Source: Promethearchaeota archaeon (GTDB taxonomy: Archaea; Asgardarchaeota; Hermodarchaeia; Hermodarchaeales; Hermodarchaeaceae). Taken from it: DNA of 64,000 nt. Location: the NCBI GenBank assembly GCA_048938385.1, contig JBHLMG010000002.1:129596-193595 (forward strand). The letters run 5' to 3'. The notes under the pieces were generated by a model. The model was not told where the DNA came from. It worked only from the letters and a program-made list of their open reading frames with translations, and ran no database searches. Below are positions 1-31,309 of this stretch, in pieces; positions within the stretch are counted from its first letter, which is position 1, and every line of letters begins with the position of its first letter. The translations under genes and the position numbers were made by a program.

Positions 1-980
1 TGACTTCGAAGTTTGTCGATTATTTCAATGGCATGATCAACATAATGAAGGTACTCAATTGCCTGTCCTAGATTCATATGGAAGCTATCATAGCTTGGTA
101 ATTTCAAACCGATTTTTTTCACCATATCCTTTGCGTTATCCGATAATTGTTTTTTTGCGACATTCAAGCGTGCGAGGGCTCCAACGACAAAGGGGTTTCC
201 TTGAATCTCACTGAATTTTGCATGCCCATAGGGTACATTACGTTCGATAATCAGATTTTGGTACTCTTTATCAGGAACCTGTAAACCTAGGTCGGTTGTT
301 AATTCTCCATTATAGATCGGGTACTCCCTGGCATGTTTAACTGCTAGGTATTGGCTTTTTCGGACTAATTTAGGTTCAGAAAATGTACTCATTAACTGGA
401 TTTGAGCTTTCGCCTCTGGAATTGCATCGTGGAGGCGTTTTCGGATCGCGTGTAGCTGGGAACTAGTAGGGACATGAGTAAACCCACCCACCACTGCACA
501 TAACGGATGAGTATGTCGTCCACCAATGAGTTCCATAAGATCGTTACCGAGTTTCTTCAGTTGGAGAGCGCGTTTTACTTCGTTGGGGTATTTGGGTAAC
601 ATTTCTACGACATTTTGCGCCTGCAAATAGTCAGGAAGGGCAAGAAAGTTGATGTGAAGCGCGTGGCTTTCGAGCATGTCACCAATCAACATGAGTTTCC
701 GAAGAGCAATCGTTTCTTCTGAGGGCTGAACCTCTAGTGCCGCTTCAACTCCCCGAATCGCTGCGATGGCATGGGAATGGCTGCAGATGCCACAAATTCT
801 TGACATGATGTGGGACACTTCATTGTATGCTTGTCCCTTGAGGAACGATTCAAAAAGGCGCGTGCCCTCTGTTACTTGCATTTCTACGCGAGATCTCCCT
901 TTGTCAGTGACTTCCACGAGGAGATTGCCGTGCCCTTCAACCCGTGCCAAATGATGAATGTCAAAGGTTACTTTAGCCAT
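1..980 (-). CDS. hydA: [NiFe]-hydrogenase large (alpha) subunit, sulfhydrogenase/group-3b-like; truncated by window edge
   Basis: Not in the ORF track because it runs off the window. Reverse translation from the ATG at 980-978 gives MAKVTFDIHHLARVEGHG...MSRICGICSHSHAIAAIRGVE, which carries the N-terminal RxCGxC Ni-binding motif. The frame stays open to position 1. The start overlaps the stop of the upstream small-subunit gene by 13 nt. Confidence 0.85.
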   Translation of the reverse strand, partial: MAKVTFDIHHLARVEGHGNLLVEVTDKGRSRVEMQVTEGTRLFESFLKGQAYNEVSHIMSRICGICSHSHAIAAIRGVEAALEVQPSEETIALRKLMLIGDMLESHALHINFLALPDYLQAQNVVEMLPKYPNEVKRALQLKKLGNDLMELIGGRHTHPLCAVVGGFTHVPTSSQLHAIRKRLHDAIPEAKAQIQLMSTFSEPKLVRKSQYLAVKHAREYPIYNGELTTDLGLQVPDKEYQNLIIERNVPYGHAKFSEIQGNPFVVGALARLNVAKKQLSDNAKDMVKKIGLKLPSYDSFHMNLGQAIEYLHYVDHAIEIIDKLRS

Positions 981-1762
981 TCGATACTCAGCCTCTTGCG
1001 TAACTCATTTACAAAGTCCTCAGATCCAGCATTGAACATTCGGAATTTTCTAACCACCGTATCGAAGCTCGCTCCTTTTACTGAAAACATGTCAATTTCA
1101 GAATCCACATTAGCTTGAGGAACTGGACCCCAACACCCTTCACAAGGAAAGTCAACACTGGGGCACAATGCCCCACAACCTGCTCGCGTGATTGGACCAA
1201 GACACAATTCTCCCTCTTTCAACAAGCACTCATTCTCTTTTAATCGACATTCTACACAAACAGGGTAGTTTTTCTCCCGTGGAGTTGACCCAGAAAGAAA
1301 AGCGGTGATAGCCTCCAAAAATTCAGTCCCGTTAATTGGGCAACCTTGAAGCTCGAAATCAACTTCAACATATTTTTTCAAAGGCAAGATTTCTGGGAGT
1401 GTCTTCACATGAGATGCATCGCCATATACTGATTGTTTTAATTCTTCAACATTCAAGCCATTGCGCATGGCATTTACTCCACCAGTGGTTGCACAGGCTC
1501 CCATGGCGATGAGGATCTTGGATTTCTCCCTCAACTCTTTCAGCTTTGCAAGTTCCGCTTCGTTAGTCACTGATCCTTCAATAAAACATATGTCATAGGG
1601 GCCATCATGTGTTGCCGAACTCCCCATTCGGAACTGAACTAATTCTATTGCTCCAAGAATATCAAGTAAATGATCTTCTTGATTGATGATTTCTAATTGA
1701 CACCCTGCACAACAGGTGAGACCAAACAGAGCCACAACAGGTTTAGCAGCAGGTTCTGACAC
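968..1762 (-). CDS. hydD: [NiFe]-hydrogenase small (delta) subunit
   Basis: 264 aa with the N-terminal CCAGCQ Fe-S cluster motif and further Cys clusters (CVECR, GCGALCPS, CEGCWGP). It lies between the gamma and alpha subunit genes. Confidence 0.85.
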   Translation of the reverse strand: MSEPAAKPVVALFGLTCCAGCQLEIINQEDHLLDILGAIELVQFRMGSSATHDGPYDICFIEGSVTNEAELAKLKELREKSKILIAMGACATTGGVNAMRNGLNVEELKQSVYGDASHVKTLPEILPLKKYVEVDFELQGCPINGTEFLEAITAFLSGSTPREKNYPVCVECRLKENECLLKEGELCLGPITRAGCGALCPSVDFPCEGCWGPVPQANVDSEIDMFSVKGASFDTVVRKFRMFNAGSEDFVNELRKRLSIEWLK

Positions 1763-1782
1763 TATTTATCGCTCTCCTACTC

Positions 1783-2640
1783 CTACACTGCACCTCGAAG
1801 CCCTTTTGCCTCAGCATAACTAAACACAGGACCATCCTGGCAAACAAACTTTGATCCTACAAGGCAATGACTACATTGCCCTACACCGCATTTCATGCGG
1901 CGTTCTAGTGAGAGAAATATTCTGTCATCAGGAAACCCGAAATTGTGTAAATCGCGAATCACGAAACGGTACATAATTGGTGGTCCACATACGAGGGCAT
2001 AGGTATCTTTAGGTTCTACCTTGATTCGGTCAAACAGAGCTGTGACCACGCCAATATTCCCCGCCCAACAGTGGTCGTCATCACGATCAACAGTAGCTAC
2101 ATATTCCACATCATTTCGGTTCGCCCAAAGATAGAGCTCATCCTTGAAGAGCAGTTCCTCGGGACAGCGTGCACCGTACAGGATTTGGAATTTCTCATAC
2201 TGGTCACGATTCTCTAAAATTTCCAAGATAACCGGACGAATGGGAACAAGTCCCATTCCTCCAGCAACTATCATGACATTCTTTCCTCTCAAGGATTGCA
2301 TAGGCCAACCACGACCATACGGACCGCGCAAAGCTACTCGGCTTCCCACAGGAAGTTTTGCTAAAGCATTAGTTAACAGTCCTACTCCTCGAATGGTTAG
2401 TTGAATGCTTTCGGTATGATTAGGAGATGAGCTCAATCCAAAGGGCGCTTCTCCAAAACCAAAAACTGATAGCAACATAAACTGACCTGGCTGAAATTGG
2501 AAATCTTGTTGTTGTTGCTTATTCAGATACCCAAAAGTGTACAAGTTCGTGTCTGGGGTTTGAGGCTCAATTTGCAGTAGTTCTGCAAGGTTATAATGGT
2601 AAGGATTTTGTGCTGTGTCTACAGCGTTGGAAATAGGCAT
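1783..2640 (-). CDS. hydG: Sulfhydrogenase gamma subunit (FAD/NAD(P)-binding oxidoreductase with C-terminal 2Fe-2S motif; PyrK/AsrB-like)
   Basis: 285 aa with a ferredoxin-reductase-like fold pattern (RGPYG, MIVAGGMGLVP) and a C-terminal CGVGQCSHC...C cluster. Its stop abuts the hydB stop/start junction. Confidence 0.8.
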   Translation of the reverse strand: MPISNAVDTAQNPYHYNLAELLQIEPQTPDTNLYTFGYLNKQQQQDFQFQPGQFMLLSVFGFGEAPFGLSSSPNHTESIQLTIRGVGLLTNALAKLPVGSRVALRGPYGRGWPMQSLRGKNVMIVAGGMGLVPIRPVILEILENRDQYEKFQILYGARCPEELLFKDELYLWANRNDVEYVATVDRDDDHCWAGNIGVVTALFDRIKVEPKDTYALVCGPPIMYRFVIRDLHNFGFPDDRIFLSLERRMKCGVGQCSHCLVGSKFVCQDGPVFSYAEAKGLRGAV

Positions 2641-3747
2641 TTACTCCGTTCCTCCTTTTTCTAAATCCAATAGTAACTCGACCATGTCAATGTCTGCAGG
2701 GCAAGTTCGGGTACACCGTCCACAGCCCACACACCCAATTTGGTTAATTTGATCGGGCTCTATTCGGAATTTATGGTATAAGCGAAACCGGATACGCGAT
2801 GCAATTGTGGGTCGGAAGTTATGCCCACCAGCGACTAATGCGAAATCTACCAGCTGACATGAATCCCAAGTACGCACACGTGCACCATTAGCTAAGTCCA
2901 AATCAACTTCATCATGAACATCAAAACAAAAACAAGTAGGACAGACCATCGTACAAGATCCGCATCCGAAACATCGCTTTCCGAGACGATTCCACAATTC
3001 AAATTCATAGCTAGCGTCTAATTGATCGGGGAGTGCATCGAAATCTTCAATGGGATTTTGAAATTTAGATAAACGCTCCGAAAGAAGGACCTTGACTTTT
3101 TTTTTGAGCTTAGGGCTAGCTACCGAGAATAACTCTTGGGCGTATTCAACGACTCTTTGCCCAACAGCTGTTTTGACATCAAACACATAATGGGAACCTG
3201 TATCAGTAATCATGATATCTGCGACTGCTTGGAAATTCCATGTTCCAGCCGAAAGACAAAACGAGTCTTCACAGGGGTTTAGGCAGTTGAGACCGATGAT
3301 GATTCCCTCTAGCCGTCGACGATTTCTAAAGGGGTCTGGATAGATTTGAGTCAGGATCGCATCATGAAACTGGATAGCCGCTAAATCACAGGAATGAACA
3401 CCAAATACTAAAAATGACTTTCCATTCCAAAGGGCATCACTAGACGATTGGATTAAGGGATCATGGATTTCCAGTTGGGGACTGCGTGTAAAAGTCAGGG
3501 TGTTTTGTTTAGGGGGGAAGAAATATTTCTTTGGAGGAAGAATCGTTGTATCATAATCCAGTTTCAGTTGAGAAGCATCTGTGATTTTATCGAATTTAAA
3601 CTGGGATTTTTGTGCGACAGGTCCATAGACTTCGAGCACTTGGGTTAGTTTTTGAATAAAGCCAGGGAGATTCTGCTTCTTCAACACAAAGGCAACAGCT
3701 GGTTTTTTTTGTGGCAAAACATCACCCTTAACCCGATTTAGCACCAA
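2641..3747 (-). CDS. hydB: Sulfhydrogenase beta subunit (4Fe-4S dicluster protein, AsrA-like)
   Basis: 368 aa with CFGCGSCTMVCPTCFC and CVGCGRCTRTCP ferredoxin motifs. It is the first gene of a B-G-D-A order, as in archaeal sulfhydrogenases. The start codon is TTG/GTG. Confidence 0.75.
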   Translation of the reverse strand: MVLNRVKGDVLPQKKPAVAFVLKKQNLPGFIQKLTQVLEVYGPVAQKSQFKFDKITDASQLKLDYDTTILPPKKYFFPPKQNTLTFTRSPQLEIHDPLIQSSSDALWNGKSFLVFGVHSCDLAAIQFHDAILTQIYPDPFRNRRRLEGIIIGLNCLNPCEDSFCLSAGTWNFQAVADIMITDTGSHYVFDVKTAVGQRVVEYAQELFSVASPKLKKKVKVLLSERLSKFQNPIEDFDALPDQLDASYEFELWNRLGKRCFGCGSCTMVCPTCFCFDVHDEVDLDLANGARVRTWDSCQLVDFALVAGGHNFRPTIASRIRFRLYHKFRIEPDQINQIGCVGCGRCTRTCPADIDMVELLLDLEKGGTE

Positions 3748-10565: not shown

Positions 10566-11156
10566 GTGCAGAGTGATCTACTGATGCCAGGGTCGAAACA
10601 TCCCCCTGCTATTGAAGATTCAGCGCAAGTACTAGTAATCCGAGCTAGTGAGCTCTCTAACAAACTGGCAAAACTCCCCAAAACTGAGCTGATGTTGCTT
10701 AAGCGAATTTATGAAACCCCTAATGACGAACAAGCCCAAAAGGTCATTAATAAGGCATTTCTCACCGAATATTCTATTCACGAATTACGCGTTGCCCTCG
10801 CTGCTCTCGACGGTGTTCACGAACTACCACTTAGCGAATGCCCTATCGGCTACGCAAACGCCAAACCCTGGAAACCACAAAAGAACACCTCTCCCCTACC
10901 ACCACAACGCATAAAATCCCCCTCCAGTGAGGCACCCCCTCTACCTTCTGCCAAAGCCACCATGGAGATCAGCACAATCCTCACAAGCATGGCTATGGAT
11001 GATTTTCAATGGCTCCTTAAAAACTTCGGAACCCCACGCGATCTTCGATCACGACTGATCATCATTAAACATCGGTTGTATCAATATCGATGGGAAGATG
11101 TCGCGGCAACACTTGCTGCATTACAACGAACCCTCCCATCAGATGAATCTGAATAA
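10566..11156 (+). CDS. Hypothetical protein, paralog A (two related helical domains joined by a Pro-rich linker)
   Basis: 196 aa. It aligns by eye along its whole length with the next gene, for example ELSNKLAKLPKTELMLLKRI against QLSDKLSSLPNDELRLLRKF, and PRDLRSRLIIIKHRLYQYRWEDVAATLAAL against PRDPRSRFLLIRYHLYRFSREDLATTIATL. Confidence 0.6.
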   Translation: MQSDLLMPGSKHPPAIEDSAQVLVIRASELSNKLAKLPKTELMLLKRIYETPNDEQAQKVINKAFLTEYSIHELRVALAALDGVHELPLSECPIGYANAKPWKPQKNTSPLPPQRIKSPSSEAPPLPSAKATMEISTILTSMAMDDFQWLLKNFGTPRDLRSRLIIIKHRLYQYRWEDVAATLAALQRTLPSDESE

Positions 11157-11240: not shown

Positions 11241-11858
11241 TTGAATAATAGAAATCGACCTCCCTATGTACAGTCAAAACGGGTGAAGGTGCATCGAGCC
11301 CGTCAACTTTCCGATAAACTCTCTTCCCTTCCTAACGACGAGTTACGACTCCTTCGAAAGTTCATAAATAATCCTCAAGCGCCAGGTATTCAACAAATCC
11401 TCGCTAAACCCGTCCTAGCTGAATATACTATACAAGAACTCAGCGTTGCCCTAGCCATACTTAGTGGTATGGGAGAGATTTCCCTTCCCGCCATGAGTCC
11501 CCCTACAGGTACGGTTCATATCCGAGATATTAGCTATCCACCTAAAGCTCCATCATTACCGACAGTTAGCCTCATTGATGATCAAAACTCTCATATTCCC
11601 CACCAAATTAACCCCCAAATCGCCCATACGCTATCAACACTTGCGGATGAAGATTTTCTTCATCTGGCCCAGTACATCAATAACCCACGAGACCCACGCA
11701 GCCGGTTTCTTCTGATCCGCTACCATTTATACCGATTCTCTCGTGAAGATCTTGCAACTACTATCGCAACTTTACTTCGACTCCGTCGTCGAAAACGCTT
11801 CGAATCTAGCAAGTCACAACCATCCCGGCTCTCCCTTACATCCCCCAAATTCTCCTGA
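11241..11858 (+). CDS. Hypothetical protein, paralog B of 10566..11156
   Basis: 205 aa with the same two-domain layout, plus a basic/Ser-rich tail (RLRRRKRFESSKSQPSRLS). Confidence 0.6.
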   Translation: MNNRNRPPYVQSKRVKVHRARQLSDKLSSLPNDELRLLRKFINNPQAPGIQQILAKPVLAEYTIQELSVALAILSGMGEISLPAMSPPTGTVHIRDISYPPKAPSLPTVSLIDDQNSHIPHQINPQIAHTLSTLADEDFLHLAQYINNPRDPRSRFLLIRYHLYRFSREDLATTIATLLRLRRRKRFESSKSQPSRLSLTSPKFS

Positions 11859-11938: not shown

Positions 11939-13201
11939 TTGGAACCCGAACAATGTGAAGAGCCTAATCCCTATCATGTTGCTGTACAACAACTTGAAAT
12001 CGTAGCTGAAAAAATGAACCTTCAAGCTGACATTCTCGAACTGCTAAAACACCCTAAACGCACCCTTATTGTGTCCCTACCTATCCGTATGGACGATGGT
12101 CGCATCAAAGTCTTCACTGGTATGCGTGTCCAACATTGGGATGCATTTGGCCCGTTCAAAGGTGGTATTCGCTATCATCCCAAAGTTTGCCTTGATGAGG
12201 TAAAGGCCTTAGCGATTTGGATGTCAATCAAAACAGCAGTAGTGGGTCTACCATATGGCGGAGCAAAGGGCGGAATTGTTTGTAATCCAAAAGAGATGAG
12301 TGATAATGAGCTTGAGCACTTAACACGCCGGTTTACACATGAAATCATGGAGATTATTGGTCCTTATCGAGATGTTCCCGCCCCTGATGTCTATACTTCT
12401 GAGCGGGAAATGGCCTGGATTTATGATACATATTCGGAGGCACAGGGATATGCAACCCCTGAAGTCGTCACTGGGAAACCCATCGCTGTTGGTGGGAGTT
12501 TAGGTCGAAAGGAAGCGACCAGTCGTGGTGTAGTTATCACAGTTAGAGAGGCTGCAAAACGCCTGAAGCTTCCTCTTAAAGGTGCCACTGTAGCCATTCA
12601 AGGATATGGAAATGTCGGCTATAATGCTGCGGTCCTCATAGCTGAGTATGGGTCCAAAATCGTAGCAGTGAGTGATTCGCAGGGGGGTATTTACAATCCC
12701 GATGGTTTTGCTCCCAATGCTGTGATGGCTCACAAAAACGAAACTGGTTCCGTGGTCGGATATCCTGGCACTCAATCAGTTACCAACAACGAACTCCTCG
12801 AACTGGAAGTTGACATTCTCATCCCGGCAGCGTTAGAAAACCAAATTCTAGCCAAGAATGCTCCTAACATCAAGGCGAAAATTATTGGCGAAGGCGCCAA
12901 TGGACCTACGACACCAGAAGCCGACGAAATCTTGTACAAGAATGGCGTCTTTGTAGTACCTGACATCCTTGCGAACGCAGGTGGTGTCACGGTGAGTTAC
13001 ATGGAGTGGGTGCAGAACCTCACTCGAGAGTCTTGGACTGAGGAAGAAGTAAACTCGAAATTAGAAGCCCGCATGGTAAAGGCATTCGATGAAGTTTTCA
13101 CTGTCCATCAAAAAGAAAAGGTACACATGCGAACTGCTGCTTACATCGTAGCACTCACCCGGATCGCAGAAGCTGTAAAAGCCCGAGGCATTTTTCCCTA
13201 A
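11939..13201 (+). CDS. gdhA: Glutamate dehydrogenase (Glu/Leu/Phe/Val dehydrogenase family)
   Basis: KGGIRYHP, GLPYGGAKGG and GYGNVGY (Rossmann) motifs. TTG start. Confidence 0.9.
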   Translation: MEPEQCEEPNPYHVAVQQLEIVAEKMNLQADILELLKHPKRTLIVSLPIRMDDGRIKVFTGMRVQHWDAFGPFKGGIRYHPKVCLDEVKALAIWMSIKTAVVGLPYGGAKGGIVCNPKEMSDNELEHLTRRFTHEIMEIIGPYRDVPAPDVYTSEREMAWIYDTYSEAQGYATPEVVTGKPIAVGGSLGRKEATSRGVVITVREAAKRLKLPLKGATVAIQGYGNVGYNAAVLIAEYGSKIVAVSDSQGGIYNPDGFAPNAVMAHKNETGSVVGYPGTQSVTNNELLELEVDILIPAALENQILAKNAPNIKAKIIGEGANGPTTPEADEILYKNGVFVVPDILANAGGVTVSYMEWVQNLTRESWTEEEVNSKLEARMVKAFDEVFTVHQKEKVHMRTAAYIVALTRIAEAVKARGIFP

Positions 13202-13326: not shown

Positions 13327-14022
13327 GTGCAACTTGAGATACTCAATGGCATAATCTGGTCAATCTTTTGGGGCGGTTGGCTTGTGTTTATCGCTGCGTG
13401 CATCGCTCAAGCACTCAAAAAGAGTAGGGGTCAAACAAAAAGACCACCACAACCCCCTCCTGCCTATCAACCGTCAGTTCGTCCCCGATATTTACAGACT
13501 CCCTCACGCGGTATTGCTCCGGAAATTAAATTAGCTATGTGCCCTGAATGTGAAGCTACCATCCTTGCCCATGTAACCGTTTGCCCTCACTGTAATACAT
13601 CGCGTCCAATTTGTATGATCTGTCGTTATCCTTTTCCTTTGGATGCTGTGGCTCTTGCATGCCCGAATTGTGGAGGCCTAGCTCATCGTGTGCACATTCT
13701 TGAATACTTAAAAGGAAAGGGGGTGTGCCCCAACTGCCAGCAAACTTTGGATGTCCAAGACCTCGTCGAACAGCGCGTCGGTGCCACTTCTCAACATCCC
13801 CCCTCAACATACCTTCAATTTCTCTGCATCGTATGCCATCACAACCTCCAGAATACCGATCAAATACTTGAATGTCCACATTGTGAAGGCAAAGCACATC
13901 GAATACACTTCCTCGAGTATCTCAAAGTTAAAGGAAGGTGCCCCAGTTGTCTGGCAGAGTTAGATCCACATCAACTTATTTCCAAAATTGGTCTAGATTC
14001 ATCTGATGAAAGTGTGGAGTAA
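13327..14022 (+). CDS. Membrane-anchored protein with one zinc ribbon and two C4H2C2 cross-brace-type (PHD/RING-variant-like) zinc fingers
   Basis: The N-terminal TM helix is IIWSIFWGGWLVFIAACIAQAL, followed by a Pro-rich linker and a CPEC-x10-CPHC ribbon. Two modules then share the spacing C-x2-C-x12-C-x2-C-x4-H-x2-H-x10-C-x2-C (nt 13612-13737 and 13825-13950). Confidence 0.65.
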   Translation: MQLEILNGIIWSIFWGGWLVFIAACIAQALKKSRGQTKRPPQPPPAYQPSVRPRYLQTPSRGIAPEIKLAMCPECEATILAHVTVCPHCNTSRPICMICRYPFPLDAVALACPNCGGLAHRVHILEYLKGKGVCPNCQQTLDVQDLVEQRVGATSQHPPSTYLQFLCIVCHHNLQNTDQILECPHCEGKAHRIHFLEYLKVKGRCPSCLAELDPHQLISKIGLDSSDESVE

Positions 14023-14035
14023 AAAGAAAAACAGG

Positions 14036-14057
14036 GGCTGAGCAGTTTTGCTCAGCC
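14036..14057. terminator. 8-bp GC-rich hairpin between convergent genes (possible bidirectional terminator)
   Basis: GGCTGAGC-agtttt-GCTCAGCC. It is flanked by an A-run upstream and TATTT downstream, and it overlaps the stop of the minus-strand gene. Confidence 0.4.
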
Positions 14058-15650
14058 GAGTATTTGGTCGAAGACATCGGCTTCGACTTCGTGTGGCATT
14101 TGAATTCCTGTGACATCCCTAGCTAGAGGGGTAAGAGCCATCAAATCATTCCGATCCACCAAGTGCAGTTTGAACTTTCGCATACCTGCAATGAGCTGCT
14201 GGATACCGATACGAATGCGTTCAAAGTAGGTGTAGACACCAATCGCGGGCTTCGGAATCTGGTTATATTCGTTTCCAAAATGCCTTTTCAGTTCCGCAGA
14301 GGCAATGAAGAACTTCTCAGGATCATCACCATAATCCTCTACAAAGCTCTTTGGCAAGTTCCCTTCTTTGGCTAACTGCGTGAAGTAGTCGCTTTTCATC
14401 GCTGCCGTTAGGGGTGAACGGGCCACAGCTACAGCTTTGAAGAAGGGGCCGTTTCCAAAGTTACTCATCGCGATTGCTTTCACAATCTGCGCCTCATGGA
14501 TGAAACCGCCAGCAATTGATATGTCAGGGATATGCTTACCCTTCTTCTTCAAAATTTGGCACCCTTTGAGAACCTGGGCTGCAAGATACACTGTTGGTGT
14601 ACTAAGTTCATTCATGTGAGCCATGGGGCTCATACCAGTTCCACCACCTGCACCATCAAGGGTGAGCATATCGACTTTGCCTTCGCTAGCAGCTTTGAGA
14701 GCAAAGGCTGTAGCAGCTGGGCGGTATGCACCCGTTTTGAGAAAGACTTTCTTTGCACCTTGCTCACGGAGCCATTCAAGATCCTCAATGCAGCTCAAAT
14801 CGGGCATACCTACGCGACTGTGCCGTTCAAAGGTCTTGATTGACCCGTTTTTGAAGGCTTCTTGAACAACGGGGTCTTCAGGGTCAGGGAGGACAATGTA
14901 TCCACGACTCTTAAGCAGCTTGGCTCGCTCAAGGGTCTTTAGACGAACTTCGCCACCAATAGACTTGGCGCCCTGGCCCCACTTGCGTTCGATCACATTC
15001 ACTTCGAGCTTGGAAATTGCGTAGAGATCAACACCAAGCCGTTGGTCTTCGACATTGGTTTGAACGACGATATCACCGTGTTTGCCATCCCAGAATTTTC
15101 GATATGCGTCAATACGGAATTGCAGATCAGGTGAATGAGATATTTTTCCACCTGTGCTTTTACTTTCATTGTCCATTCCGCAGACATTCTCGCCAACGGT
15201 CTGAATCGTTCCTGCAATTGCAGAACCCATGGAGATGCCTTCCCAATGATTTTTCGCCACTGCCGTGGAGCCCAATCCTGCGATGAGCATGGGCAGCTTT
15301 AATGGGATACCACCTACCGAGGTGGACGCATCGGCGTTTGGGAAAATGGCAATATCTGAGTTAGCTTCGATTCCTTCAGCGCCTTGGAGTGCTGCCAGCA
15401 GCTGAAAGTTTGACCAATCGAGCCCAAAGTCCTTGTTGGCTGACGCTGTGCTTTGCCCAAAATACTCGTTTGTGGGGTAGAGCACTTCGTGGCCACGAAA
15501 TGCAGATTTACTGATCATACAGAGGACCTTGCAGTCTCGGATGCAGATACCGCACATTCCGCTAACGGGGTTAGGGTCTCTTGTGCGGAGGGCTGTACCG
15601 TCGGTGGATCGTGCGTTACATAGACTATCATCCATCACGATAAACCTCAT
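14052..15650 (-). CDS. FMN-binding glutamate synthase family protein (GltB domain-2-like, archaeal type)
   Basis: 532 aa with an N-terminal Cys cluster (CGICIRDCKVLC). The FMN/TIM-barrel signatures are LDGAGGGTGMSP and ISIAGGF. Confidence 0.85.
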   Translation of the reverse strand: MRFIVMDDSLCNARSTDGTALRTRDPNPVSGMCGICIRDCKVLCMISKSAFRGHEVLYPTNEYFGQSTASANKDFGLDWSNFQLLAALQGAEGIEANSDIAIFPNADASTSVGGIPLKLPMLIAGLGSTAVAKNHWEGISMGSAIAGTIQTVGENVCGMDNESKSTGGKISHSPDLQFRIDAYRKFWDGKHGDIVVQTNVEDQRLGVDLYAISKLEVNVIERKWGQGAKSIGGEVRLKTLERAKLLKSRGYIVLPDPEDPVVQEAFKNGSIKTFERHSRVGMPDLSCIEDLEWLREQGAKKVFLKTGAYRPAATAFALKAASEGKVDMLTLDGAGGGTGMSPMAHMNELSTPTVYLAAQVLKGCQILKKKGKHIPDISIAGGFIHEAQIVKAIAMSNFGNGPFFKAVAVARSPLTAAMKSDYFTQLAKEGNLPKSFVEDYGDDPEKFFIASAELKRHFGNEYNQIPKPAIGVYTYFERIRIGIQQLIAGMRKFKLHLVDRNDLMALTPLARDVTGIQMPHEVEADVFDQILG

Positions 15651-21816: not shown

Positions 21817-22527
21817 CTAAGACTTGAATTCAACAAGCAACCAAGCAATGAATATAATAATCCATGCAATAGCAGCGAGTATGAAGGTATAGAGCATAAA
21901 TGGTGCTATAAATTGGACCAGCGCCATGAGCAAGGCAGCGATGAACCATAGGAAGATTCCCAACCAGCCAATCCAGGTCCACATCTTCGCGGCGCCCTCA
22001 CGTTCTTTCGCAAGGCGATAGAGCACGAGGAAGGGTACTAAGAACATGTAGAAGAAGGCTAGCAAGCCACTGTATAATATGAAGTAAAACGGCATAGCGA
22101 GATAGGTAAGCACTCCATCTGAAACAGTCTGCACCGTAACTGGCGTGGCAAGGAACCACAAGAGTGTGAGCCAAGATAGCGTTCCCAAGATGGGGAGGTA
22201 AACAGCCCACATCCGCTTCTTAAACCACTCAAAATCGAGGCAGTAGAACACTAAGCAGAAGGCGTGGAGTCCAACAAAGGTGTATGCTCCAAGGTAGTAC
22301 GGTAATAGTTGAACAGCAGTCGCTACAGCTGGAAGATTGTAAATAGACGCAGCTAAACTCATGAAGGTTAGAAACCCGAAAACAACGGCAAGGAATCCAC
22401 CGAATCCCGATGACGGTGATCTACCTCTCAAGGATCCGATAATTCCAATCAGCGCAAATACCAAAAAGATGATGCAAAGTAGCATTATGGCTCCAAAATG
22501 GATGGGTGTTTCATGTATGTAGAGCAT
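21817..22527 (-). CDS. 7-TM membrane protein, paralog A (unknown family)
   Basis: 236 aa with seven hydrophobic helices. It shares the MLYIHETPIHFG start and the NLPA.ATA.QLLPYYLGA loop with the next gene. Confidence 0.65.
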   Translation of the reverse strand: MLYIHETPIHFGAIMLLCIIFLVFALIGIIGSLRGRSPSSGFGGFLAVVFGFLTFMSLAASIYNLPAVATAVQLLPYYLGAYTFVGLHAFCLVFYCLDFEWFKKRMWAVYLPILGTLSWLTLLWFLATPVTVQTVSDGVLTYLAMPFYFILYSGLLAFFYMFLVPFLVLYRLAKEREGAAKMWTWIGWLGIFLWFIAALLMALVQFIAPFMLYTFILAAIAWIIIFIAWLLVEFKS

Positions 22528-22647: not shown

Positions 22648-23463
22648 TTATTTTAACTTCGAAATTGCTCGAGTAGCTATAGTAAGTCCGATGTAACTTA
22701 GGATCAACCCAATGAGTCCAAGTCCGAGCGCATATGGCATGATGGGGGCAGCGAAGAAGACGACTGCCATGCACATTGCTGAGATATCCCACAAGAAAAG
22801 ACCGAACCAAGCTAGCCAATTTCCAGTCTTTAGGCTGCCCCCCTGCTCTTTCGTAACGCGATAGGTATGAATGAAGGGTATGATGAACATATAGATGATG
22901 GCGAGAACGCCACCATAGGTCACAACGACCAGTGGCATGGCGAGCCAATGCATGACTCCGTCAGAGACTACGGTTGTGGTGCCTGAAGTGGTGAATAGCC
23001 ACAACACGACTAGAAACGAGATAGTGCCGATGAGGAAGAGGTACTTGAACCACTGTGGTAATTGAAGTGCCTTTACGCTGAACATTAAGAAAATCCCAAA
23101 AAAGGCGTACAGGGCTACACAAGACCACGCGCCAAGATAATAGGGTAAGAGTTGATCAGCTGTTGCGGTTGCTGGAAGATTGTACATCATGATGGCTAAG
23201 ATAGAGTAAGTGAACAACAGAAAGAATAATGTCAAGAAGGTTAGCCAATTCCATTCCTTCCTTTCTTCGCTGGCAATCATTGCTCGAAAACTAACGAAAA
23301 CGCCGTAAAGCAAAACTATCCAAGTCACAATTACAAGTCCGAAGTGAATTGGTGTTTCGTGAATGTAAAGCATTCCAAAGAAACCCTCCAATGTGCCCTC
23401 CTTTGCATATGTTATATAACGCTTCTGCTCATTCATTTGATTGTATGACGGAAATTCCGCCAA
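22648..23463 (-). CDS. 7-TM membrane protein, paralog B
   Basis: 271 aa as drawn. The internal ATG at 23373 (MLYIHETPIHFG), with GGAGGG 10 nt upstream, is probably the real start, because paralog A has the same GGAGGG-ATG arrangement. Confidence 0.65.
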   Translation of the reverse strand: MAEFPSYNQMNEQKRYITYAKEGTLEGFFGMLYIHETPIHFGLVIVTWIVLLYGVFVSFRAMIASEERKEWNWLTFLTLFFLLFTYSILAIMMYNLPATATADQLLPYYLGAWSCVALYAFFGIFLMFSVKALQLPQWFKYLFLIGTISFLVVLWLFTTSGTTTVVSDGVMHWLAMPLVVVTYGGVLAIIYMFIIPFIHTYRVTKEQGGSLKTGNWLAWFGLFLWDISAMCMAVVFFAAPIMPYALGLGLIGLILSYIGLTIATRAISKLK

Positions 23464-23961: not shown

Positions 23962-25398
23962 CTATTCTTCCAGACACATCGTCGGAGGAACCTTCCATAA
24001 TCTCTGGTTTGCTCTCCAAAGGATGTGTCGTTGGAGGGAGGGAAGAAGTGGAAGATTTCGTTTAAATCGTAATATCTTGGTCTTGAAAATTCTTGGAATA
24101 GTAAGGAGTGTTCGCGTTAACTGTTTGATAAGGCTTGGTCCGACAGTTGGGAGACCGATAAGGATAATGGCTCCATCGTCAGTAGGAAAAAGTTGTACCA
24201 TCGGATATTGGGTGATTAATTGATAGAGTATGTTGAGCGTTGGTTTCTCACAACTAATCAAAAGACAAAGAACATCTTCAAAAGCCATCCGGCTGAAGGT
24301 TAGATATGGGAAATAGGCTTCTTTTTGTCGAAGTTTACGAAGATGAGTCCAAATGGTTTTTTCTGATAATGGAAATGCGTTGTGGTGTAAGAGATCTCGT
24401 TGTTCGAATTTAGATAAAAGCCCTTCACAGGTGGTGATGGTTAGGAGCCAATCTGTTGGGTGAAAAGCCATGGGTTCTCCATGATAGATGAATCCTTGGA
24501 GTGGAGTGAACTGTGAACCATGTTCTTCGATGAACCGAAGAACCGCTTCGGTGTGGAGATCTGGTGAAATCTTCCACTGCTGTGAACCGTAATCATAGAA
24601 ATCTAAACTTATGTTCGCGAAGAATCCACGAATTTGATGAATTTCTACATCATCTAAAAACACATCTTTTATCCATTGTATTGTTTGGTGTAGCTGTTTT
24701 AGCCATTGAACTTGATCTGGCACAAACAGAGTGAAGACTCCGGAAATCTGATCGACATCAAACATCGCTCCAGTGAGAAAGGGGAAAGCATCGCCGAAGA
24801 AGAGTTGCTTGTTTAACCATTGTTTGAATCGCAGAGAAGTCTTAAGAGATGGTCCGCTGAAGTAAATTCCAAAATGAGCTAAACCGAATTTCGGGGGATT
24901 AAGGATGCCAGCTACGCGAAGGCCATAACGAGTAAACAGAATTTGGCGATCCCGATTGATGGTCCGTGAACTAGTTTCTAACAACTTCGCAAGTGCCATG
25001 GTCCTTAGTTCTGGTTGAATTCCCTTGTGCTGAATGTATTGAATCTGTTTTCGGTTAAAATGCATAGGACGATACAACTGAAGACCAGCAGTGAGTAATT
25101 CTGAAATTCGTTTTGGACTATGCAAGTGGTATTCTGCAATGATGTTTATCCTGTAAGCTAGTTCAGATGCCAATTCCTCAGAAATGGGCTGATTTTCAAA
25201 ACTAAACAGGGGATGATCAGGCAGATTGAGGTCTGTAAATGTCTGGGCGTGAAAAGCCCGTTTAAGATACAAGGTTATATGGGTAAGTAGGAGTTCAAGA
25301 TCCGATTTTGCGGGGCTTGGCTGAACTTCTTCTAAAATGGCTTGTTTTCGAATGTCAAATGATTGATAGGGATCTGGCACAACAAATCCCACCATCAA
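23962..25398 (-). CDS. Large (~470 aa) putative DNA-binding protein with two HTH + Lrp/AsnC-effector-like modules, paralog A
   Basis: HTH-like segments are LRTMALAKLLETSSRTINRDRQILFTRYGLRV and LSEKTIWTHLRKLRQKEAY. Each is followed by a beta-alpha-beta-like segment. It is collinear with 26111..27511. Confidence 0.55.
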   Translation of the reverse strand: MMVGFVVPDPYQSFDIRKQAILEEVQPSPAKSDLELLLTHITLYLKRAFHAQTFTDLNLPDHPLFSFENQPISEELASELAYRINIIAEYHLHSPKRISELLTAGLQLYRPMHFNRKQIQYIQHKGIQPELRTMALAKLLETSSRTINRDRQILFTRYGLRVAGILNPPKFGLAHFGIYFSGPSLKTSLRFKQWLNKQLFFGDAFPFLTGAMFDVDQISGVFTLFVPDQVQWLKQLHQTIQWIKDVFLDDVEIHQIRGFFANISLDFYDYGSQQWKISPDLHTEAVLRFIEEHGSQFTPLQGFIYHGEPMAFHPTDWLLTITTCEGLLSKFEQRDLLHHNAFPLSEKTIWTHLRKLRQKEAYFPYLTFSRMAFEDVLCLLISCEKPTLNILYQLITQYPMVQLFPTDDGAIILIGLPTVGPSLIKQLTRTLLTIPRIFKTKILRFKRNLPLLPSLQRHILWRANQRLWKVPPTMCLEE

Positions 25399-26110: not shown

Positions 26111-27511
26111 CTAGATATCTCCGTCAGTGAATTCCCAAAATTGACGGCTTTCGTTCCATCGGCGGAAAAAATCTTGATCTAAACTGTTACCAAAATTTCG
26201 TTCCTGATGCACAGTTAATAAATCCTGAATATCATAGTATTTTATAACATCGCGAATGAGCGTTGCAATCTTGTCTCTCCAGCCTGTAGGGCGTTTAAAG
26301 AAAATCAAAATTCCATCTTCAGATGGGTAAGTAAATGCTGCTGGAAACATCGATGCGAGCCATTGAAGTCGTCGGCGTGTCGGGAGATCACAAAGAATGC
26401 TAATCAGAATGAACTCCTCGAATCCTCCGCCACTGAAGTACATGATTGGAGTTATCATTTCCTCAGCTTTCAAACGCCTCAGATGTAACCAAATAGAGTT
26501 TTTTGAGAGATGAAATTCCCAACTTGCTAGGGTATTCCGAATGTCAGTTAGGGTGTCTTGTGGAGTGATACCGATATTTGCTAGAAGAAAATCGATTTGC
26601 CTAAAATGAACTGGGAATCGAAAATCTTGGTAATGAATATATGCAATATCTTCCAAGCCCTCTTCACCTGGATCCTCAATTCTCTTAATGTCCTCAAATT
26701 CTGGAGGGCTCTGCCAGTTTCCATGTTTTGCATCATACAAGTCAAAGCGAATGTTCCAATACTTTTCTAGGACTCGATGAACATGGACTCGATGCAGAAA
26801 ATTGCGTTTCAACCACTTTACCCGTTTCTCAAATAATTGGAATGCTCGTTGCTGAGATGGAACCGCGAAAGCCATGAATCCGTGAGAGAAGGTGACATCA
26901 AAAACGAAGGCTGTTAGGAAGGGGAGCGAAGTTTGCCGAACCCAAGATTCTAAAGCTTTTGATTCCTCATAAGAGTGGGTTTGAAAAACAACACCGTATG
27001 TAGTGAGCTTAAATTTTCCACGGTTATCAATATAGACTCTTCGTAGACCGTTTTGTTCTTCTAATATTTGTAAGATCCGACTTGCTTTGTAACGCGTTAA
27101 GTTCAAATTCTGGGCTAATTTAGTTATGCTAGCCATGGGGTTCTTTGCCATTTGGTTCAGAATATCGACCTCTATGGTGGAAAATAGACGGTTAGAGCTT
27201 CGTTCCAATCCTATTAGCAACATCTCTTGAATTCTTGACACTGATCGGATACCATATTCATGGATGATGCGGATGCGATCTTTTAATGATTCAGCAAGTT
27301 CTGAAGAGAGCGCCGCTTGGGAGAACCGCATCTTCTGGTGACTTGGGTATTTCCTTTCTTCTGGAGTTAGAGCACCGGTTTCAACTAATTTGATGTATAA
27401 TAATACACTTTCAAATAGGCATTGAAGATTGTCCCGCTCCTCATTTGGAACCGAACGGGCGAGAATCTCATCGGTAATGTGTTTCAGTGGATGCTCAATC
27501 ACTCCCGCCAT
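26111..27511 (-). CDS. Large putative DNA-binding protein with two HTH + Lrp/AsnC-effector-like modules, paralog B
   Basis: ITKLAQNLNLTRYKASRILQILEEQNGLRRV and LSKNSIWLHLRRLKAEEMI, with the conserved SSELAESLKDRIRIIHEY block (SEELASELAYRINIIAEY in paralog A). Confidence 0.55.
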   Translation of the reverse strand: MAGVIEHPLKHITDEILARSVPNEERDNLQCLFESVLLYIKLVETGALTPEERKYPSHQKMRFSQAALSSELAESLKDRIRIIHEYGIRSVSRIQEMLLIGLERSSNRLFSTIEVDILNQMAKNPMASITKLAQNLNLTRYKASRILQILEEQNGLRRVYIDNRGKFKLTTYGVVFQTHSYEESKALESWVRQTSLPFLTAFVFDVTFSHGFMAFAVPSQQRAFQLFEKRVKWLKRNFLHRVHVHRVLEKYWNIRFDLYDAKHGNWQSPPEFEDIKRIEDPGEEGLEDIAYIHYQDFRFPVHFRQIDFLLANIGITPQDTLTDIRNTLASWEFHLSKNSIWLHLRRLKAEEMITPIMYFSGGGFEEFILISILCDLPTRRRLQWLASMFPAAFTYPSEDGILIFFKRPTGWRDKIATLIRDVIKYYDIQDLLTVHQERNFGNSLDQDFFRRWNESRQFWEFTDGDI

Positions 27512-29902: not shown

Positions 29903-31309
29903 TTAGCGAAATTGTTGGGTTCGATGCCAACGACGGTGTGCTTCAATCTTATCTTTAGGAACAAAGCGTTTACAGCTAGGACACTTCACAAAGCCTTTCG
30001 TCACCATTTCTAGAACTTGGTTTCGGCGTCGACGCTCCGACACCCGACTAATATAATCTGCGAGTCCAAAGGTGAGAACCGTTGCAGGAATCAACACTAA
30101 GGCAGGTAGTAGAACTGTCTGTCCTGCACGAACCGATCGATCCGAGATATTCGGAACTGCAAGAATTACCGAAAGAGGATGATTTGCCACTATCACTTCT
30201 GATCCTTCACGAGTGAAGTCAAAATTTGCAGTTACCACAACCTCTGGTTGATATATCAAGTTCCAGAGAATCCGTGTATCCCAATAGATCGTATTCCATG
30301 ATTGAATAGTGAGGATAGGACGGTCATTTTCAAAGACAGTTCCGACACCTAAAACCTCATGGCCAGGGCTATAGGGATCAAAATCCTCCACTAAAGTTTG
30401 GCTAATTCCTGCTTTCATGGCAGAACTAGCCCATATTGTATCTGGATCCCACCCACTTGTTGAGTATGATAATATCCATAACTCGTTTCCTTTGACAAAT
30501 GCGATTTCATAACCAGGTCGATCGGCCATTGCGTCACCAATTTCAAGTGAGCGAATTGTATCCTCCCAGAAGAATAGCAGGCTCGTATCCCAACTCCCGT
30601 TCTCGTAGGATAATTGGATAATACCAGTATGATAACCTGCCACAAGTAACTCCTGCCCCATAAAACCCGGGTCTACATCTCCAATAGCTCCACATAGAAG
30701 GGTATTGGTGATTGTGTAGATGTTTGTAAGTGACCAGGTGACATTGTTAAACTGTTCAACGATGACTACACGACTAGTATGTGTGGCTGACGACCAGTTA
30801 TAGTGTTCGCCGATAATGACAATCTCGTAGGCCTCTGATGCTTCGATTAGTTGTCCAGAAATCATTGCCTTGATGGTTAATTCAGGGGGTGTCCAGGGTA
30901 AGACTCCGATGATTTTGTTCTCCCAGGTATCGATTCCACGAGAAATCAACCGCAAGGTCCCATTGTATGAGAGAACTGCAATCTCCTCCCCTTTGTGATC
31001 GCTATCAAAGTCTCCCACAGAAACTGAGACTAAAGGGTCTGTGTCCCATACAGGATTCCTGTAAGTTGTGTTTTCCCATGGAGAGGTTGATAATCCGCCG
31101 ACCACATATACTCCGGCAGGGGTCAGGTACACAATTTCAAGACCTGGTTTGTAGACATCGACATTCCCCACACCGACGCCCTGCACATCTGTGGTTTCGA
31201 TACTACTCGTGACATATCGCTCTCGTAAACCGACCCAGTTGGTAAAAAACAAAGCGATGATGAGAATGAGCCAAATGGGATAAAGATAGTTTTTTCGGAG
31301 TTGAACCAA
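29903..31309 (-). CDS. Bitopic FG-GAP/VCBS-like beta-propeller protein with a cytoplasmic C2H2-type zinc-finger tail
   Basis: N-terminal hydrophobic anchor. Repeated GD.D.D..G.E... loops (GDFDSDHKGEEIAV, GDVDPGFMGQELLVAG, GDAMADRPGYEIAF, ANFDFTREGSEVIVAN). C-terminal TM helix, then CPSC-x11-H-x3-H. Confidence 0.6.
   Translation of the reverse strand: MVQLRKNYLYPIWLILIIALFFTNWVGLRERYVTSSIETTDVQGVGVGNVDVYKPGLEIVYLTPAGVYVVGGLSTSPWENTTYRNPVWDTDPLVSVSVGDFDSDHKGEEIAVLSYNGTLRLISRGIDTWENKIIGVLPWTPPELTIKAMISGQLIEASEAYEIVIIGEHYNWSSATHTSRVVIVEQFNNVTWSLTNIYTITNTLLCGAIGDVDPGFMGQELLVAGYHTGIIQLSYENGSWDTSLLFFWEDTIRSLEIGDAMADRPGYEIAFVKGNELWILSYSTSGWDPDTIWASSAMKAGISQTLVEDFDPYSPGHEVLGVGTVFENDRPILTIQSWNTIYWDTRILWNLIYQPEVVVTANFDFTREGSEVIVANHPLSVILAVPNISDRSVRAGQTVLLPALVLIPATVLTFGLADYISRVSERRRRNQVLEMVTKGFVKCPSCKRFVPKDKIEAHRRWHRTQQFR

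Follow-up and report, generated by a model that had tools for sequence, protein, structure and literature searches.

For Asgard archaea as a group, an E1/E2/RING-E3 cascade has been demonstrated (PMC5654768; bioRxiv 10.1101/2023.07.25.550441). The E1, E2 and RING-E3 proteins of a Helarchaeia operon ubiquitylate substrates in vitro, and an Asgard operon RING protein directly binds the UEV domain of UEV-Vps23 (bioRxiv 10.1101/2023.07.25.550441). The Caldiarchaeum cascade is likewise active in vitro, and mutations of I30, W58 and R69 impair its activity (PMC5654768). The RING domain type is already known, as is the E3 role that it plays in Asgard ubiquitin operons, and the Asgard ubiquitin system has so far been studied through one small soluble operon RING protein, the small RING finger protein (srfp). 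Here we analyze a gene of an Asgard metagenome-assembled genome (MAG), located in a 64-kb stretch of contig JBHLMG010000002.1 (the window, meaning the whole stretch of DNA analyzed), which encodes a membrane-anchored protein with one zinc ribbon and two modules of the srfp type.

Eukaryotic membrane-anchored ubiquitin ligases drive endoplasmic reticulum (ER)-associated degradation, receptor down-regulation and sorting that depends on the endosomal sorting complex required for transport (ESCRT). Some of them, such as RNF24 and the ATLs, consist of an N-terminal transmembrane (TM) anchor followed by the RING. Among prokaryotes, the prokaryotic RING finger family 1 (Prok-RING_1, PF14446) was reportedly defined by Burroughs, Iyer and Aravind in 2011, and its genes adjoin genes for ubiquitin-like (Ub-like), E1, E2 or JAB proteins.

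In analogy to the srfp of Asgard and Aigarchaeota operons, both modules of the window protein follow the ligand spacing C-x2-C-x12-C-x2-C-x4-H-x2-H-x10-C-x2-C, and four operon RINGs, 32–44% identical to the window modules, share the core motif AH..H.LE[WY][LIV]K[VI]KG.CP.C. The srfp is soluble, comprises about 80 aa, carries an N-terminal GxWDW 'N-loop' and Arg, Lys or Gly after the last Cys, and is encoded beside ubiquitin (Ub), E2 and E1, whereas the window protein is TM-anchored, has a ribbon in the place of the N-loop, lacks GxWDW, contains two RINGs with Gln or Leu at the linchpin position, and is encoded among glutamate-metabolism genes. From sequence comparison and structure prediction we read it, with a probability of roughly 0.55, as a membrane-tethered RING E3 ligase, whose cytoplasmic RINGs would recruit ubiquitin-charged Asgard E2 (E2~Ub), perhaps as an intramolecular RING pair.

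Results

Architecture and ligand conservation

The open reading frame (ORF) 13327–14022 on the forward strand encodes 231 aa between a GTG start and a TAA stop, and its product matches the NCBI entry ACFE89_04765 at 100% identity, a MAG protein encoded on a 290-kb contig, annotated as 'hypothetical protein' and labelled Candidatus Hodarchaeota. The original prediction, made from the letters of the window, had described a TM helix, a Pro-rich linker and a CPEC-x10-CPHC ribbon, followed by two modules with identical ligand spacing and a common core, and the 231-aa sequence bears out each of these elements. Module 1 spans C96 to C137 (nt 13612–13737) with the ligands C96, C99, C112, C115, H120, H123, C134 and C137, and module 2 spans C167 to C208 (nt 13825–13950) with the ligands C167, C170, C183, C186, H191, H194, C205 and C208. 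Both follow the spacing given above exactly and share the core HR[VI]H[IF]LEYLK[GV]KG.CP.C (HRVHILEYLKGKGVCPNC and HRIHFLEYLKVKGRCPSC). The preceding ribbon has the form C72-P-E-C75-x10-C86-P-H-C89, and its motif CPxCEATILA...CPHC is invariant in the orthologues.

The TM segment reaches a Kyte-Doolittle maximum of 2.09 in its best 19-residue window, which starts at residue 9, and its N and C flanks carry net charges of −1 and +5, respectively. According to these flank charges and the positive-inside rule the zinc domains are placed in the cytoplasm, and the predicted topology is N-out/C-in (signal anchor) with a short N-terminal stub outside. The TM helix is kept in full-length orthologues, several database entries being N-terminally shortened. 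The Pro-rich linker (KRPPQPPPAYQPSVRPRYLQTPSRG) differs in length and sequence among the orthologues.

In an alignment of 23 orthologues with 39–60% identity to the window protein all 20 Cys and His residues were invariant. The 12/4/10 spacing was exact in 199 of 204 modules taken from 194 related proteins, and the ligands were invariant across 63 non-redundant modules as well. Among all six-frame ORFs of the window with 40 aa or more, no other one matched even a relaxed eight-ligand pattern. With invariant ligands, fixed spacing and no other window ORF carrying the pattern, the module pattern is not due to chance. The family signature reads C-x-[VI]-C-x12-CP.C-x3-A-H-[RK]-x-H-[LFI]-L-E-[WY]-[LIV]-K-V-K-G-x-CP.C-x3-L. 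An exhaustive profile search yielded 1,514 related representatives, of which 365 reached E ≤ 1e-10, and the named database relatives (46 of 46) were Asgard archaea. The profile built from the module alignment, which is too short for a database of such size, gave no match at E ≤ 1e-6 against 5.8 billion sequences.

Occurrence of the same module in ubiquitin operons

Fetched loci were screened by phmmer with ubiquitin, E2 and MoeB queries. The sole locus matched was L057 of a Hermodarchaeota MAG, in which the gene of an 81-aa RING protein precedes those of a ubiquitin with a terminal GG, of an E2 (UQ_con, 7.5e-33) and of an E1 (ThiF, 7.5e-65), with a divergent UEV-Vps23 gene upstream. The RING protein of this operon scored 29.3 bits with Prok-RING_1 and 27.4 bits with zf-RING_2. 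Further ESCRT/ubiquitin operons were reached via E2 homologues at L063 (Helarchaeota), L064 and L065, and all four operons, each of the order RING-Ub-E2-E1 with UEV-Vps23 nearby, encode a RING protein of 75–82 aa with the exact 12/4/10 module. Over 54 aa, window RING2 and the Helarchaeota operon RING share 44% identity (E 7e-15), and RING1 is 32–37% identical to the operon RINGs; the BLASTP comparisons with operon RINGs gave E values of 7e-15 and 2e-11. The modules of the window protein are very probably RING-fold domains homologous to the operon E3. As the identical module is the small RING of the Asgard RING-Ub-E2-E1 operons, the E3-ligase-like role that had been proposed for the gene appears to be the best reading of its sequence.

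The ESCRT/ubiquitin clusters cover positions 146–3863 in L057, 1683–5818 in L063, 1–6586 in L064 and 3525–10453 in L065. L064 and L065 also contain Vps28 and ESCRT-II genes (Pfam EAP30 and ESCRT-II), and Vps4 genes are found in L063 and L064. All four small operon RINGs have a GxW[DN]W motif in common, which precedes the RING itself.

Going by their numbering, the Caldiarchaeum residues I30, W58 and R69 would occupy the positions two after ligand 1, four after ligand 6 and one after ligand 8, i.e. those of I98, Y127 and the linchpin in RING1. The putative E2-contact residues of the window protein are I98/V169, Y127/Y198 and P135/P206, and these positions are kept in the 23 orthologues as well as family-wide, with Val or Ile two residues after ligand 1, Tyr, Trp, Phe or His four residues after ligand 6, and Pro directly after ligand 7.

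Homology of the modules to RING-H2 domains

A profile of the 63 non-redundant modules, compared with all PDB sequences, retrieved nearly exclusively RING E3 ligases, with RING-H2 proteins first (RNF24, 6e-9; EL5, 8.6e-8; RNF126, 1.4e-7), followed among others by Arkadia, synoviolin/Hrd1, AMFR/gp78, RNF165, RNF38 and RLIM. In these alignments the family ligands 1, 2, 5, 6, 7 and 8 correspond to C1, C2, H5, C6, C7 and C8 of RING-H2, and the conserved Trp/Tyr and Pro are in register as well. The fourth ligand of the family, a Cys, aligns with the canonical Cys-3, and the canonical His-4 has no counterpart; judged from the alignment, the additional Cys three residues upstream (CP.C) takes its place, so that the modules represent a C4H2C2 variant relative to the C3H2C3 of RING-H2.

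With respect to Pfam, 61 of the 63 modules matched zf-RING_2 (E ≤ 0.01) and 56 matched Prok-RING_1 (best 2e-10). For the whole window protein Prok-RING_1 gave 3e-7 and 30.7 bits (cut-off 29.1) as the sum of three partial stretches, and zf-RING_2 gave 6.5e-5 and 23.6 bits (cut-off 27.3), residues 96–138 corresponding to positions 3–44 of the 44-position profile. RING-H2 (zf-RING_2) and Prok-RING_1 are the nearest relatives of the modules. The best matches among solved structures belong to eukaryotic RING-H2 domains of the zf-RING_2 type (PF13639), chiefly those of membrane-anchored ligases (RNF24, rice EL5/ATL, Hrd1/synoviolin, gp78/AMFR, RNF13, ZNRF3). Common to these and the window modules are a hydrophobic residue that separates ligand 1 from ligand 2, His as ligand 5, the Trp or Tyr on the helix, CP.C at ligands 7 and 8 and the ten-residue spacing between ligands 6 and 7. 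The modules differ from the RING-H2 pattern (C-x2-C-xn-C-x-H-x2-H-x2-C-xn-C-x2-C) in their C4H2C2 ligand set with His as ligand 6, in their scores under the zf-RING_2 cut-off, in the ribbon directly upstream, in the tandem arrangement and in the lack of an Arg or Lys linchpin. Prok-RING_1 aligns with the family only from about position 4 to 33 of 54, i.e. from ligand 1 to just past ligand 5, and the C-terminal half of that model does not fit the window family. The gene neighbourhood typical of Prok-RING_1 was not found in the 64-kb window (phmmer screen; Pfam on 49 ORFs) but is present for the small soluble paralogues in L057 and L063–L065.

Predicted structure

The AlphaFold2 (AF2) model of the full-length protein had a mean predicted local distance difference test score (pLDDT) of 82.6, with values of 87–97 per ten-residue block, mostly above 90, in the modules. 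The TM helix was modelled at residues 2–34 (pLDDT 94–98), and residues 37–57 of the linker remained below 50. Each module adopted a beta-beta-alpha arrangement with strands at 107–111 and 118–120 and a helix at 121–131 in module 1, and strands at 179–182 and 189–191 and a helix at 192–202 in module 2. The helix begins at ligand 5 (H120 or H191) and bears ligand 6 as well as the conserved aromatic residue. In the model, a helix starting from ligand 5 with an aromatic four residues after ligand 6 corresponds to the RING/treble-clef arrangement.

Foldseek comparison of the model with the PDB returned mostly RING/U-box E3 ligases or RING-scaffold proteins with a probability of about 1.0, including the RING1B-BMI1 fusion (2.2e-5), LubX, Pirh2, LNX1, RNF4 and TRAF6, furthermore the spliceosome-complex chains 8i0r_9 and 7dvq_9 and the RINGs of IFT-A and GATOR2. 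A single module superposed on 3lrq with 1.7–1.9 Å over 57–60 columns, and no zinc-ribbon or PHD fold was among the PDB top 50. By the fold of the model and by the homology to cross-brace RING-H2 domains the ligands would interleave, giving a Cys2His2 site 1 (ligands 1, 2, 5 and 6) and a Cys4 site 2 (ligands 3, 4, 7 and 8).

The two-module model aligned over 137–180 columns with dimeric or tandem RING/U-box proteins (RING1B-BMI1, 6wi7/6wi8; RNF4, 4ap4_A; LubX), and RING1B-BMI1, RNF4 and Legionella LubX with its two U-boxes have in common with the window protein that two RING-fold units form one functional entity. Unlike in these structures, contact between the RINGs of the window protein is hypothetical, and its inter-module orientation is of low confidence (predicted template modelling score (pTM) 0.42; root-mean-square deviation 17–19 Å in the two-module alignments).

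Weighing of the ligase reading against its alternatives

The gene product is best read as a single-pass protein whose predicted cytoplasmic zinc domain combines one C4 ribbon with two RINGs of the Asgard srfp type. If it is an E3 ligase, one or both RINGs would dock ubiquitin-charged Asgard E2 on the canonical surface and would then promote the transfer of ubiquitin onto membrane or membrane-proximal proteins. This surface comprises the hydrophobic residue that separates ligand 1 from ligand 2, the helix aromatic located four residues beyond ligand 6, and the Pro that follows ligand 7. The two RINGs may form an intramolecular pseudo-dimer, resembling dimeric eukaryotic RINGs, and the ribbon and the variable loops may supply contacts to partners or substrates.

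Several results weigh against this reading. Directly behind the last Cys, where the Arg or Lys linchpin would be expected, RING1 has Q138 and RING2 has L209, which could mean weak or absent activation of E2~Ub. Ligase activity is known for the Caldiarchaeum and Helarchaeia operon proteins only and for no membrane-anchored member, and several eukaryotic RINGs that match in structure, those of GATOR2 and IFT-A, are scaffolds and not ligases. The top Pfam match of the whole protein is a zinc-ribbon family (see below), the single window modules stay under the Pfam cut-offs (zf-RING_2 22.6 versus 27.3, Prok-RING_1 20.8 versus 29.1), and the best Prok-RING_1 stretch covers model positions 6–32 of 54 only. 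The interleaved ligand pairing derives from fold and profile homology and not from measured distances, and an AF2 model of ribbon and RING1 alone (residues 64–152, alignment of 15 sequences) was unusable with a pLDDT of 51.8. Finally, neither ubiquitin, E1, E2 nor JAB was found in the 64-kb window (phmmer screen; Pfam on 49 ORFs), and none of the 42 Asgard E2s obtained in a search with the operon E2 could be assigned to the MAG of the window. The earlier statement that no ubiquitin-system context explains the gene holds only locally; the organism itself belongs to the Asgard group, for which an E1/E2/RING-E3 cascade is known.

The alternative that survives best, although we regard it as clearly less probable, is that the protein works as a RING scaffold or membrane adaptor without catalysis. 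Its RING folds would then serve solely for protein-protein interaction and might tether an E2-fold protein like UEV-Vps23 (ESCRT-I) or another partner to the membrane, with no transfer of ubiquitin. It would agree with the missing Arg/Lys linchpins, the RING2 position being Lys or Arg in only 4 of 23 orthologues, with the non-ligase RINGs of GATOR2 and IFT-A among the best structural matches, and with the binding of the UEV domain of UEV-Vps23 by the Asgard operon RING (bioRxiv 10.1101/2023.07.25.550441). On the other hand, the canonical E2-contact residues (Val/Ile, aromatic, Pro) are strictly conserved, the RING1 linchpin is Lys or Arg in 13 of 23 orthologues, and the closest homologues of known function are active E3s. 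Moreover, hydrogen bonding would still be possible with Gln, Asn or His as the linchpin residue, which counts against a pure scaffold.

Compatible with the E3 ligase reading, but doubtful in itself, is the idea that the protein regulates its genomic neighbours, i.e. glutamate dehydrogenase (GDH), the GltS-like protein with the glutamate-synthase FMN domain or the products of the two upstream genes unkA and unkB, by ubiquitylation or binding. Wherever the contig of an orthologous locus (L001–L019) extends far enough upstream, GDH adjoins the RING gene, and it stays adjacent even where the downstream gene is PALP instead of GltS-like, the order unkA, unkB, GDH, RING is complete in 14 of these 19 loci, and in the window the RING gene is co-directional with GDH across a 125-bp gap. 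However, the orthologue genomes form one closely related clade in which a 15-kb region (Maf, Endo_dU, AsnC, MoCF, ABC, NadA and others) is collinear, so that the adjacency of GDH is inseparable from inherited synteny; Asgard paralogues elsewhere have unrelated neighbour genes. A functional operon with GDH was rejected for the same reason.

Very unlikely is a membrane-anchored multi-zinc-ribbon protein with three sequential sites (ribbon, ribbon and H2C2), no RING fold and no relation to ubiquitin. Relatives are publicly labelled 'zinc ribbon domain-containing protein', the ligand pairing is, as stated, taken from homology and fold, the Zn_ribbon_6 score of the whole protein is 25.2 bits versus a cut-off of 25, and DZR is the top Pfam match with 3.1e-8 and 34.1 bits (cut-off 27.3) over residues 72–116. 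The original prediction had regarded assignment to a known zinc-ribbon family as contrary to a RING- or PHD-like finger, and such an assignment was obtained in part, above the cut-off but spanning C72–C115 only. The DZR match takes ligands 1–4 of RING1 for its other 'ribbon', and the invariant H-x2-H...C-x2-C half (H120, H123, C134 and C137) stays unexplained. The RING-H2 profile alignments in turn span all ligands as well as conserved non-ligand residues with E values down to 6e-9, the modules superpose on RINGs as closely as described above with no ribbon fold in the top 50, and in ubiquitin operons the RING gene encodes this very module.

A PHD-like or RING-CH-like reader of a modified peptide or lipid at the membrane is the least probable option: the spacing of ligands 3–6 (C-x2-C-x4-H-x2-X) is indeed PHD-type and PHD structures (KMT2C/KMT2D) match partially (about 1e-3 to 7e-3, module positions 3/4–30 only), but PHD and RINGv were absent from the best 25 Pfam families for the protein and the family, the full-length matches are to RING-H2, the helix from ligand 5 with its conserved aromatic is RING-like, and ligand 6 is His. 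Of the original assignment, the RING-superfamily part is supported by the RING-H2 profiles and Foldseek, and the PHD-like spacing had been recognized correctly; the specific comparison with PHD and RING-CH fingers is not supported, the homology being to RING-H2 and neither PHD nor RINGv ranking with the leading Pfam matches.

Membership in the following types was rejected. A PHD finger is contradicted by His instead of Cys as ligand 6, the lack of a full profile match and the absence of PHD from the Foldseek top 50, and RING-CH/RINGv of the MARCH type by C-x2-C instead of C-x-C at ligands 3/4, by His as ligand 6 and by the lack of RINGv among the best Pfam matches. An RBR ligase would require a catalytic Cys in RING2 and an IBR between its RING-like domains; the IBR is missing: the 29 residues between C137 and C167 contain no Cys/His pairs, and the modules are equivalent copies. 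An anti-sigma-like zinc protein has the wrong topology, and archaea are not known to have sigma factors.

Gene neighbourhood and orthologues

The coordinates of the gene, its parts and its neighbours are outlined in Table 1. The flanking glutamate-metabolism genes noted in the original prediction were confirmed by Pfam as glutamate dehydrogenase and a protein with a glutamate-synthase FMN domain.

Table 1. Coordinates (in the window) of the tandem-RING gene, its parts and the adjacent genes.
Feature	Coordinates	Strand	Evidence
Whole gene, ribbon and tandem RING, membrane-anchored	13327..14022	+	ORF and database match
N-terminal TM helix, ~residues 7–29	13345..13413	+	Hydropathy, flank charges, AF2 helix 2–34
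Juxtamembrane linker, basic, Pro-rich, residues 30–71	13414..13539	+	Low pLDDT, variable in orthologues
C4 zinc ribbon C72-x2-C75-x10-C86-x2-C89	13540..13593	+	Invariant Cys; Pfam DZR
RING module 1 with LD..DL extension to residue 146	13612..13764	+	Invariant ligands, zf-RING_2, AF2
Inter-RING linker, residues 147–166	13765..13824	+	pLDDT <50 at 156–161; poorly conserved
RING module 2 with LD..L extension; no preceding ribbon	13825..13977	+	Invariant ligands, Prok-RING_1 stretch 166–192
Short acidic C-terminal tail SKIGLDSSDESVE	13981..14019	+	Sequence; only in closest orthologues
Glutamate dehydrogenase gene (context), co-directional, 125 bp upstream	11939..13201	+	Pfam ELFV_dehydrog 1e-87
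Glutamate-synthase FMN-domain protein (context), convergent	14052..15650	-	Pfam Glu_synthase 5.7e-11; syntenic in most orthologous loci

The orthologues fall into two classes, two-RING proteins of about 205–233 aa and one-RING proteins of about 150–165 aa. Between orthologous loci GDH is 83–86% and the GltS-like protein 87–93% identical, and the RING protein about 44–46%; this low identity beside conserved flanks indicates that the RING protein evolves much faster outside its ligands and core. The nearest orthologous loci with a class label are mostly Hermodarchaeota, including Hermodarchaeum yapensis (GDH 83% identical), and the class-level label Candidatus Hodarchaeota of the window's MAG may for this reason be unreliable.

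Two loci each carry a pair of genes for single-RING proteins with the 'TM, ribbon, RING' layout (L014, 5974–6471 and 8613–9074; L016, 980–1498 and 3638–4102). These proteins comprise 165 and 153 aa, and between their genes lie a TrpB-like PALP gene and a gene of 167 aa, while the window has one tandem gene. Comparison of window RING1 and RING2 with the two L014 paralogues yielded identities with no clear signal, so that fusion and internal duplication are not separable as the origin of RING2.

The upstream genes unkA and unkB (10566–11156 and 11241–11858, +) are tandem paralogues of about 200 aa with 35% identity (E 3e-28). Their products consist of two helical halves with a Pro-rich linker between them and match no Pfam family or PDB sequence, and in 14 of 19 orthologous loci the pair lies directly upstream of GDH and the TM-RING gene.

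The wider membrane-anchored family

One genome per species from 185,579 bacterial and archaeal species was scanned with two family motifs. The scan unveiled 56 loci, all in Asgard MAGs except for two loci of one Bathyarchaeia MAG, and the lineages covered were Hermod, Hod, Heimdall, Loki/Promethearchaeota, Odin, Borr, Sif, Freya and Jord, with several paralogues per genome. Because the motifs are narrow, the scan locates close members and says nothing on distant members elsewhere.

Most members other than the soluble operon proteins have at least one hydrophobic segment, and across the family the C4 ribbon starts about 24 residues (23–26) ahead of the first RING Cys. Judging by the sequences, the usual layout is a 'TM, zinc ribbon, RING' cassette, often located behind large ectodomains. 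Receptor-like members consist of a signal or TM segment, a large ectodomain and a TM helix, followed by ribbon and RING, and their ectodomains comprise NosD/beta-helix, immunoglobulin (Ig)/cadherin/PKD-like (weak matches), SBP_bac_5 and PPC domains; one family member is a leucine-rich-repeat fusion. The named members are annotated solely as 'hypothetical' or 'zinc ribbon domain-containing'.

Examples of receptor-like proteins are encoded in L022 (4255–6252), L023 (4186–6273), L027 (3994–6243), L035 (2377–6369) and L041 (3442–6228); P0066 and P0153 are further ones. In all of these the C-terminal ribbon and C4H2C2 RING are predicted to be cytoplasmic. A family of about 1,015 aa occurs in Heimdallarchaeota MAGs (L024, 3214–6255; L033, 3199–6264; L040, 1021–4077; L042, 3220–6273) and in the non-Asgard Bathyarchaeia MAG (L043, 3166–6204), with hydrophobic segments around residues 15 and 675, a ribbon and RING at the C-terminus and no Pfam match in the N-terminal ~930 aa.

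Other features of the window

The window gave no match in Rfam and tRNA scans. A 1,145-aa protein (38981–42418, +) consists nearly entirely of PAS domains (up to eight matched stretches) with no recognized output domain. Three ORFs of about 470 aa on the reverse strand (23962–25398, 26111–27511 and 29903–31309) have no Pfam match; the first two are alike by eye and may carry a helix-turn-helix region. Also on the reverse strand, positions 968–3747 encode an Oxidored_q6 protein resembling a hydrogenase small subunit, an FAD/NAD-binding Fe-S protein and a Fer4_22 protein, a cluster which probably belongs to a soluble hydrogenase or oxidoreductase. Two neighbouring reverse-strand genes (21817–22527 and 22648–23463) encode polytopic membrane proteins that resemble each other, match no Pfam family and both contain MLYIHETPIHFG.

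Discussion

The ribbon and tandem-RING membrane architecture, the 'TM, ribbon, RING' cassette and the receptor-like members appear to be undescribed; no description of membrane-anchored Asgard RING proteins was found in the literature, the coverage of which was incomplete. The same RING module in membrane-anchored, ribbon-linked and receptor-like proteins of many Asgard lineages points to a candidate set of archaeal transmembrane E3s.

It is a tentative possibility that Asgard archaea hold an expanded, largely unannotated 'TM, zinc ribbon, RING' family of active ubiquitin ligases working with Asgard E1, E2 and ubiquitin, and that membrane ubiquitylation predates eukaryotes. If this were true, the family would span the range from a minimal tandem-RING form to receptor-like proteins with NosD beta-helix, Ig/cadherin-like or solute-binding domains or an uncharacterized domain of ~950 aa. 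It would then imply membrane-localized and possibly signal-coupled ubiquitylation, following the logic of ATL/RNF24, PA-TM-RING, ZNRF3 and Hrd1 as well as of ESCRT sorting, and its members could be antecedents of the eukaryotic transmembrane RING-H2 ligases. If the proteins are inactive scaffolds, they would still show that the RING fold diversified before eukaryogenesis; if they are active, membrane ubiquitylation would become directly testable in the archaeal relatives of eukaryotes.

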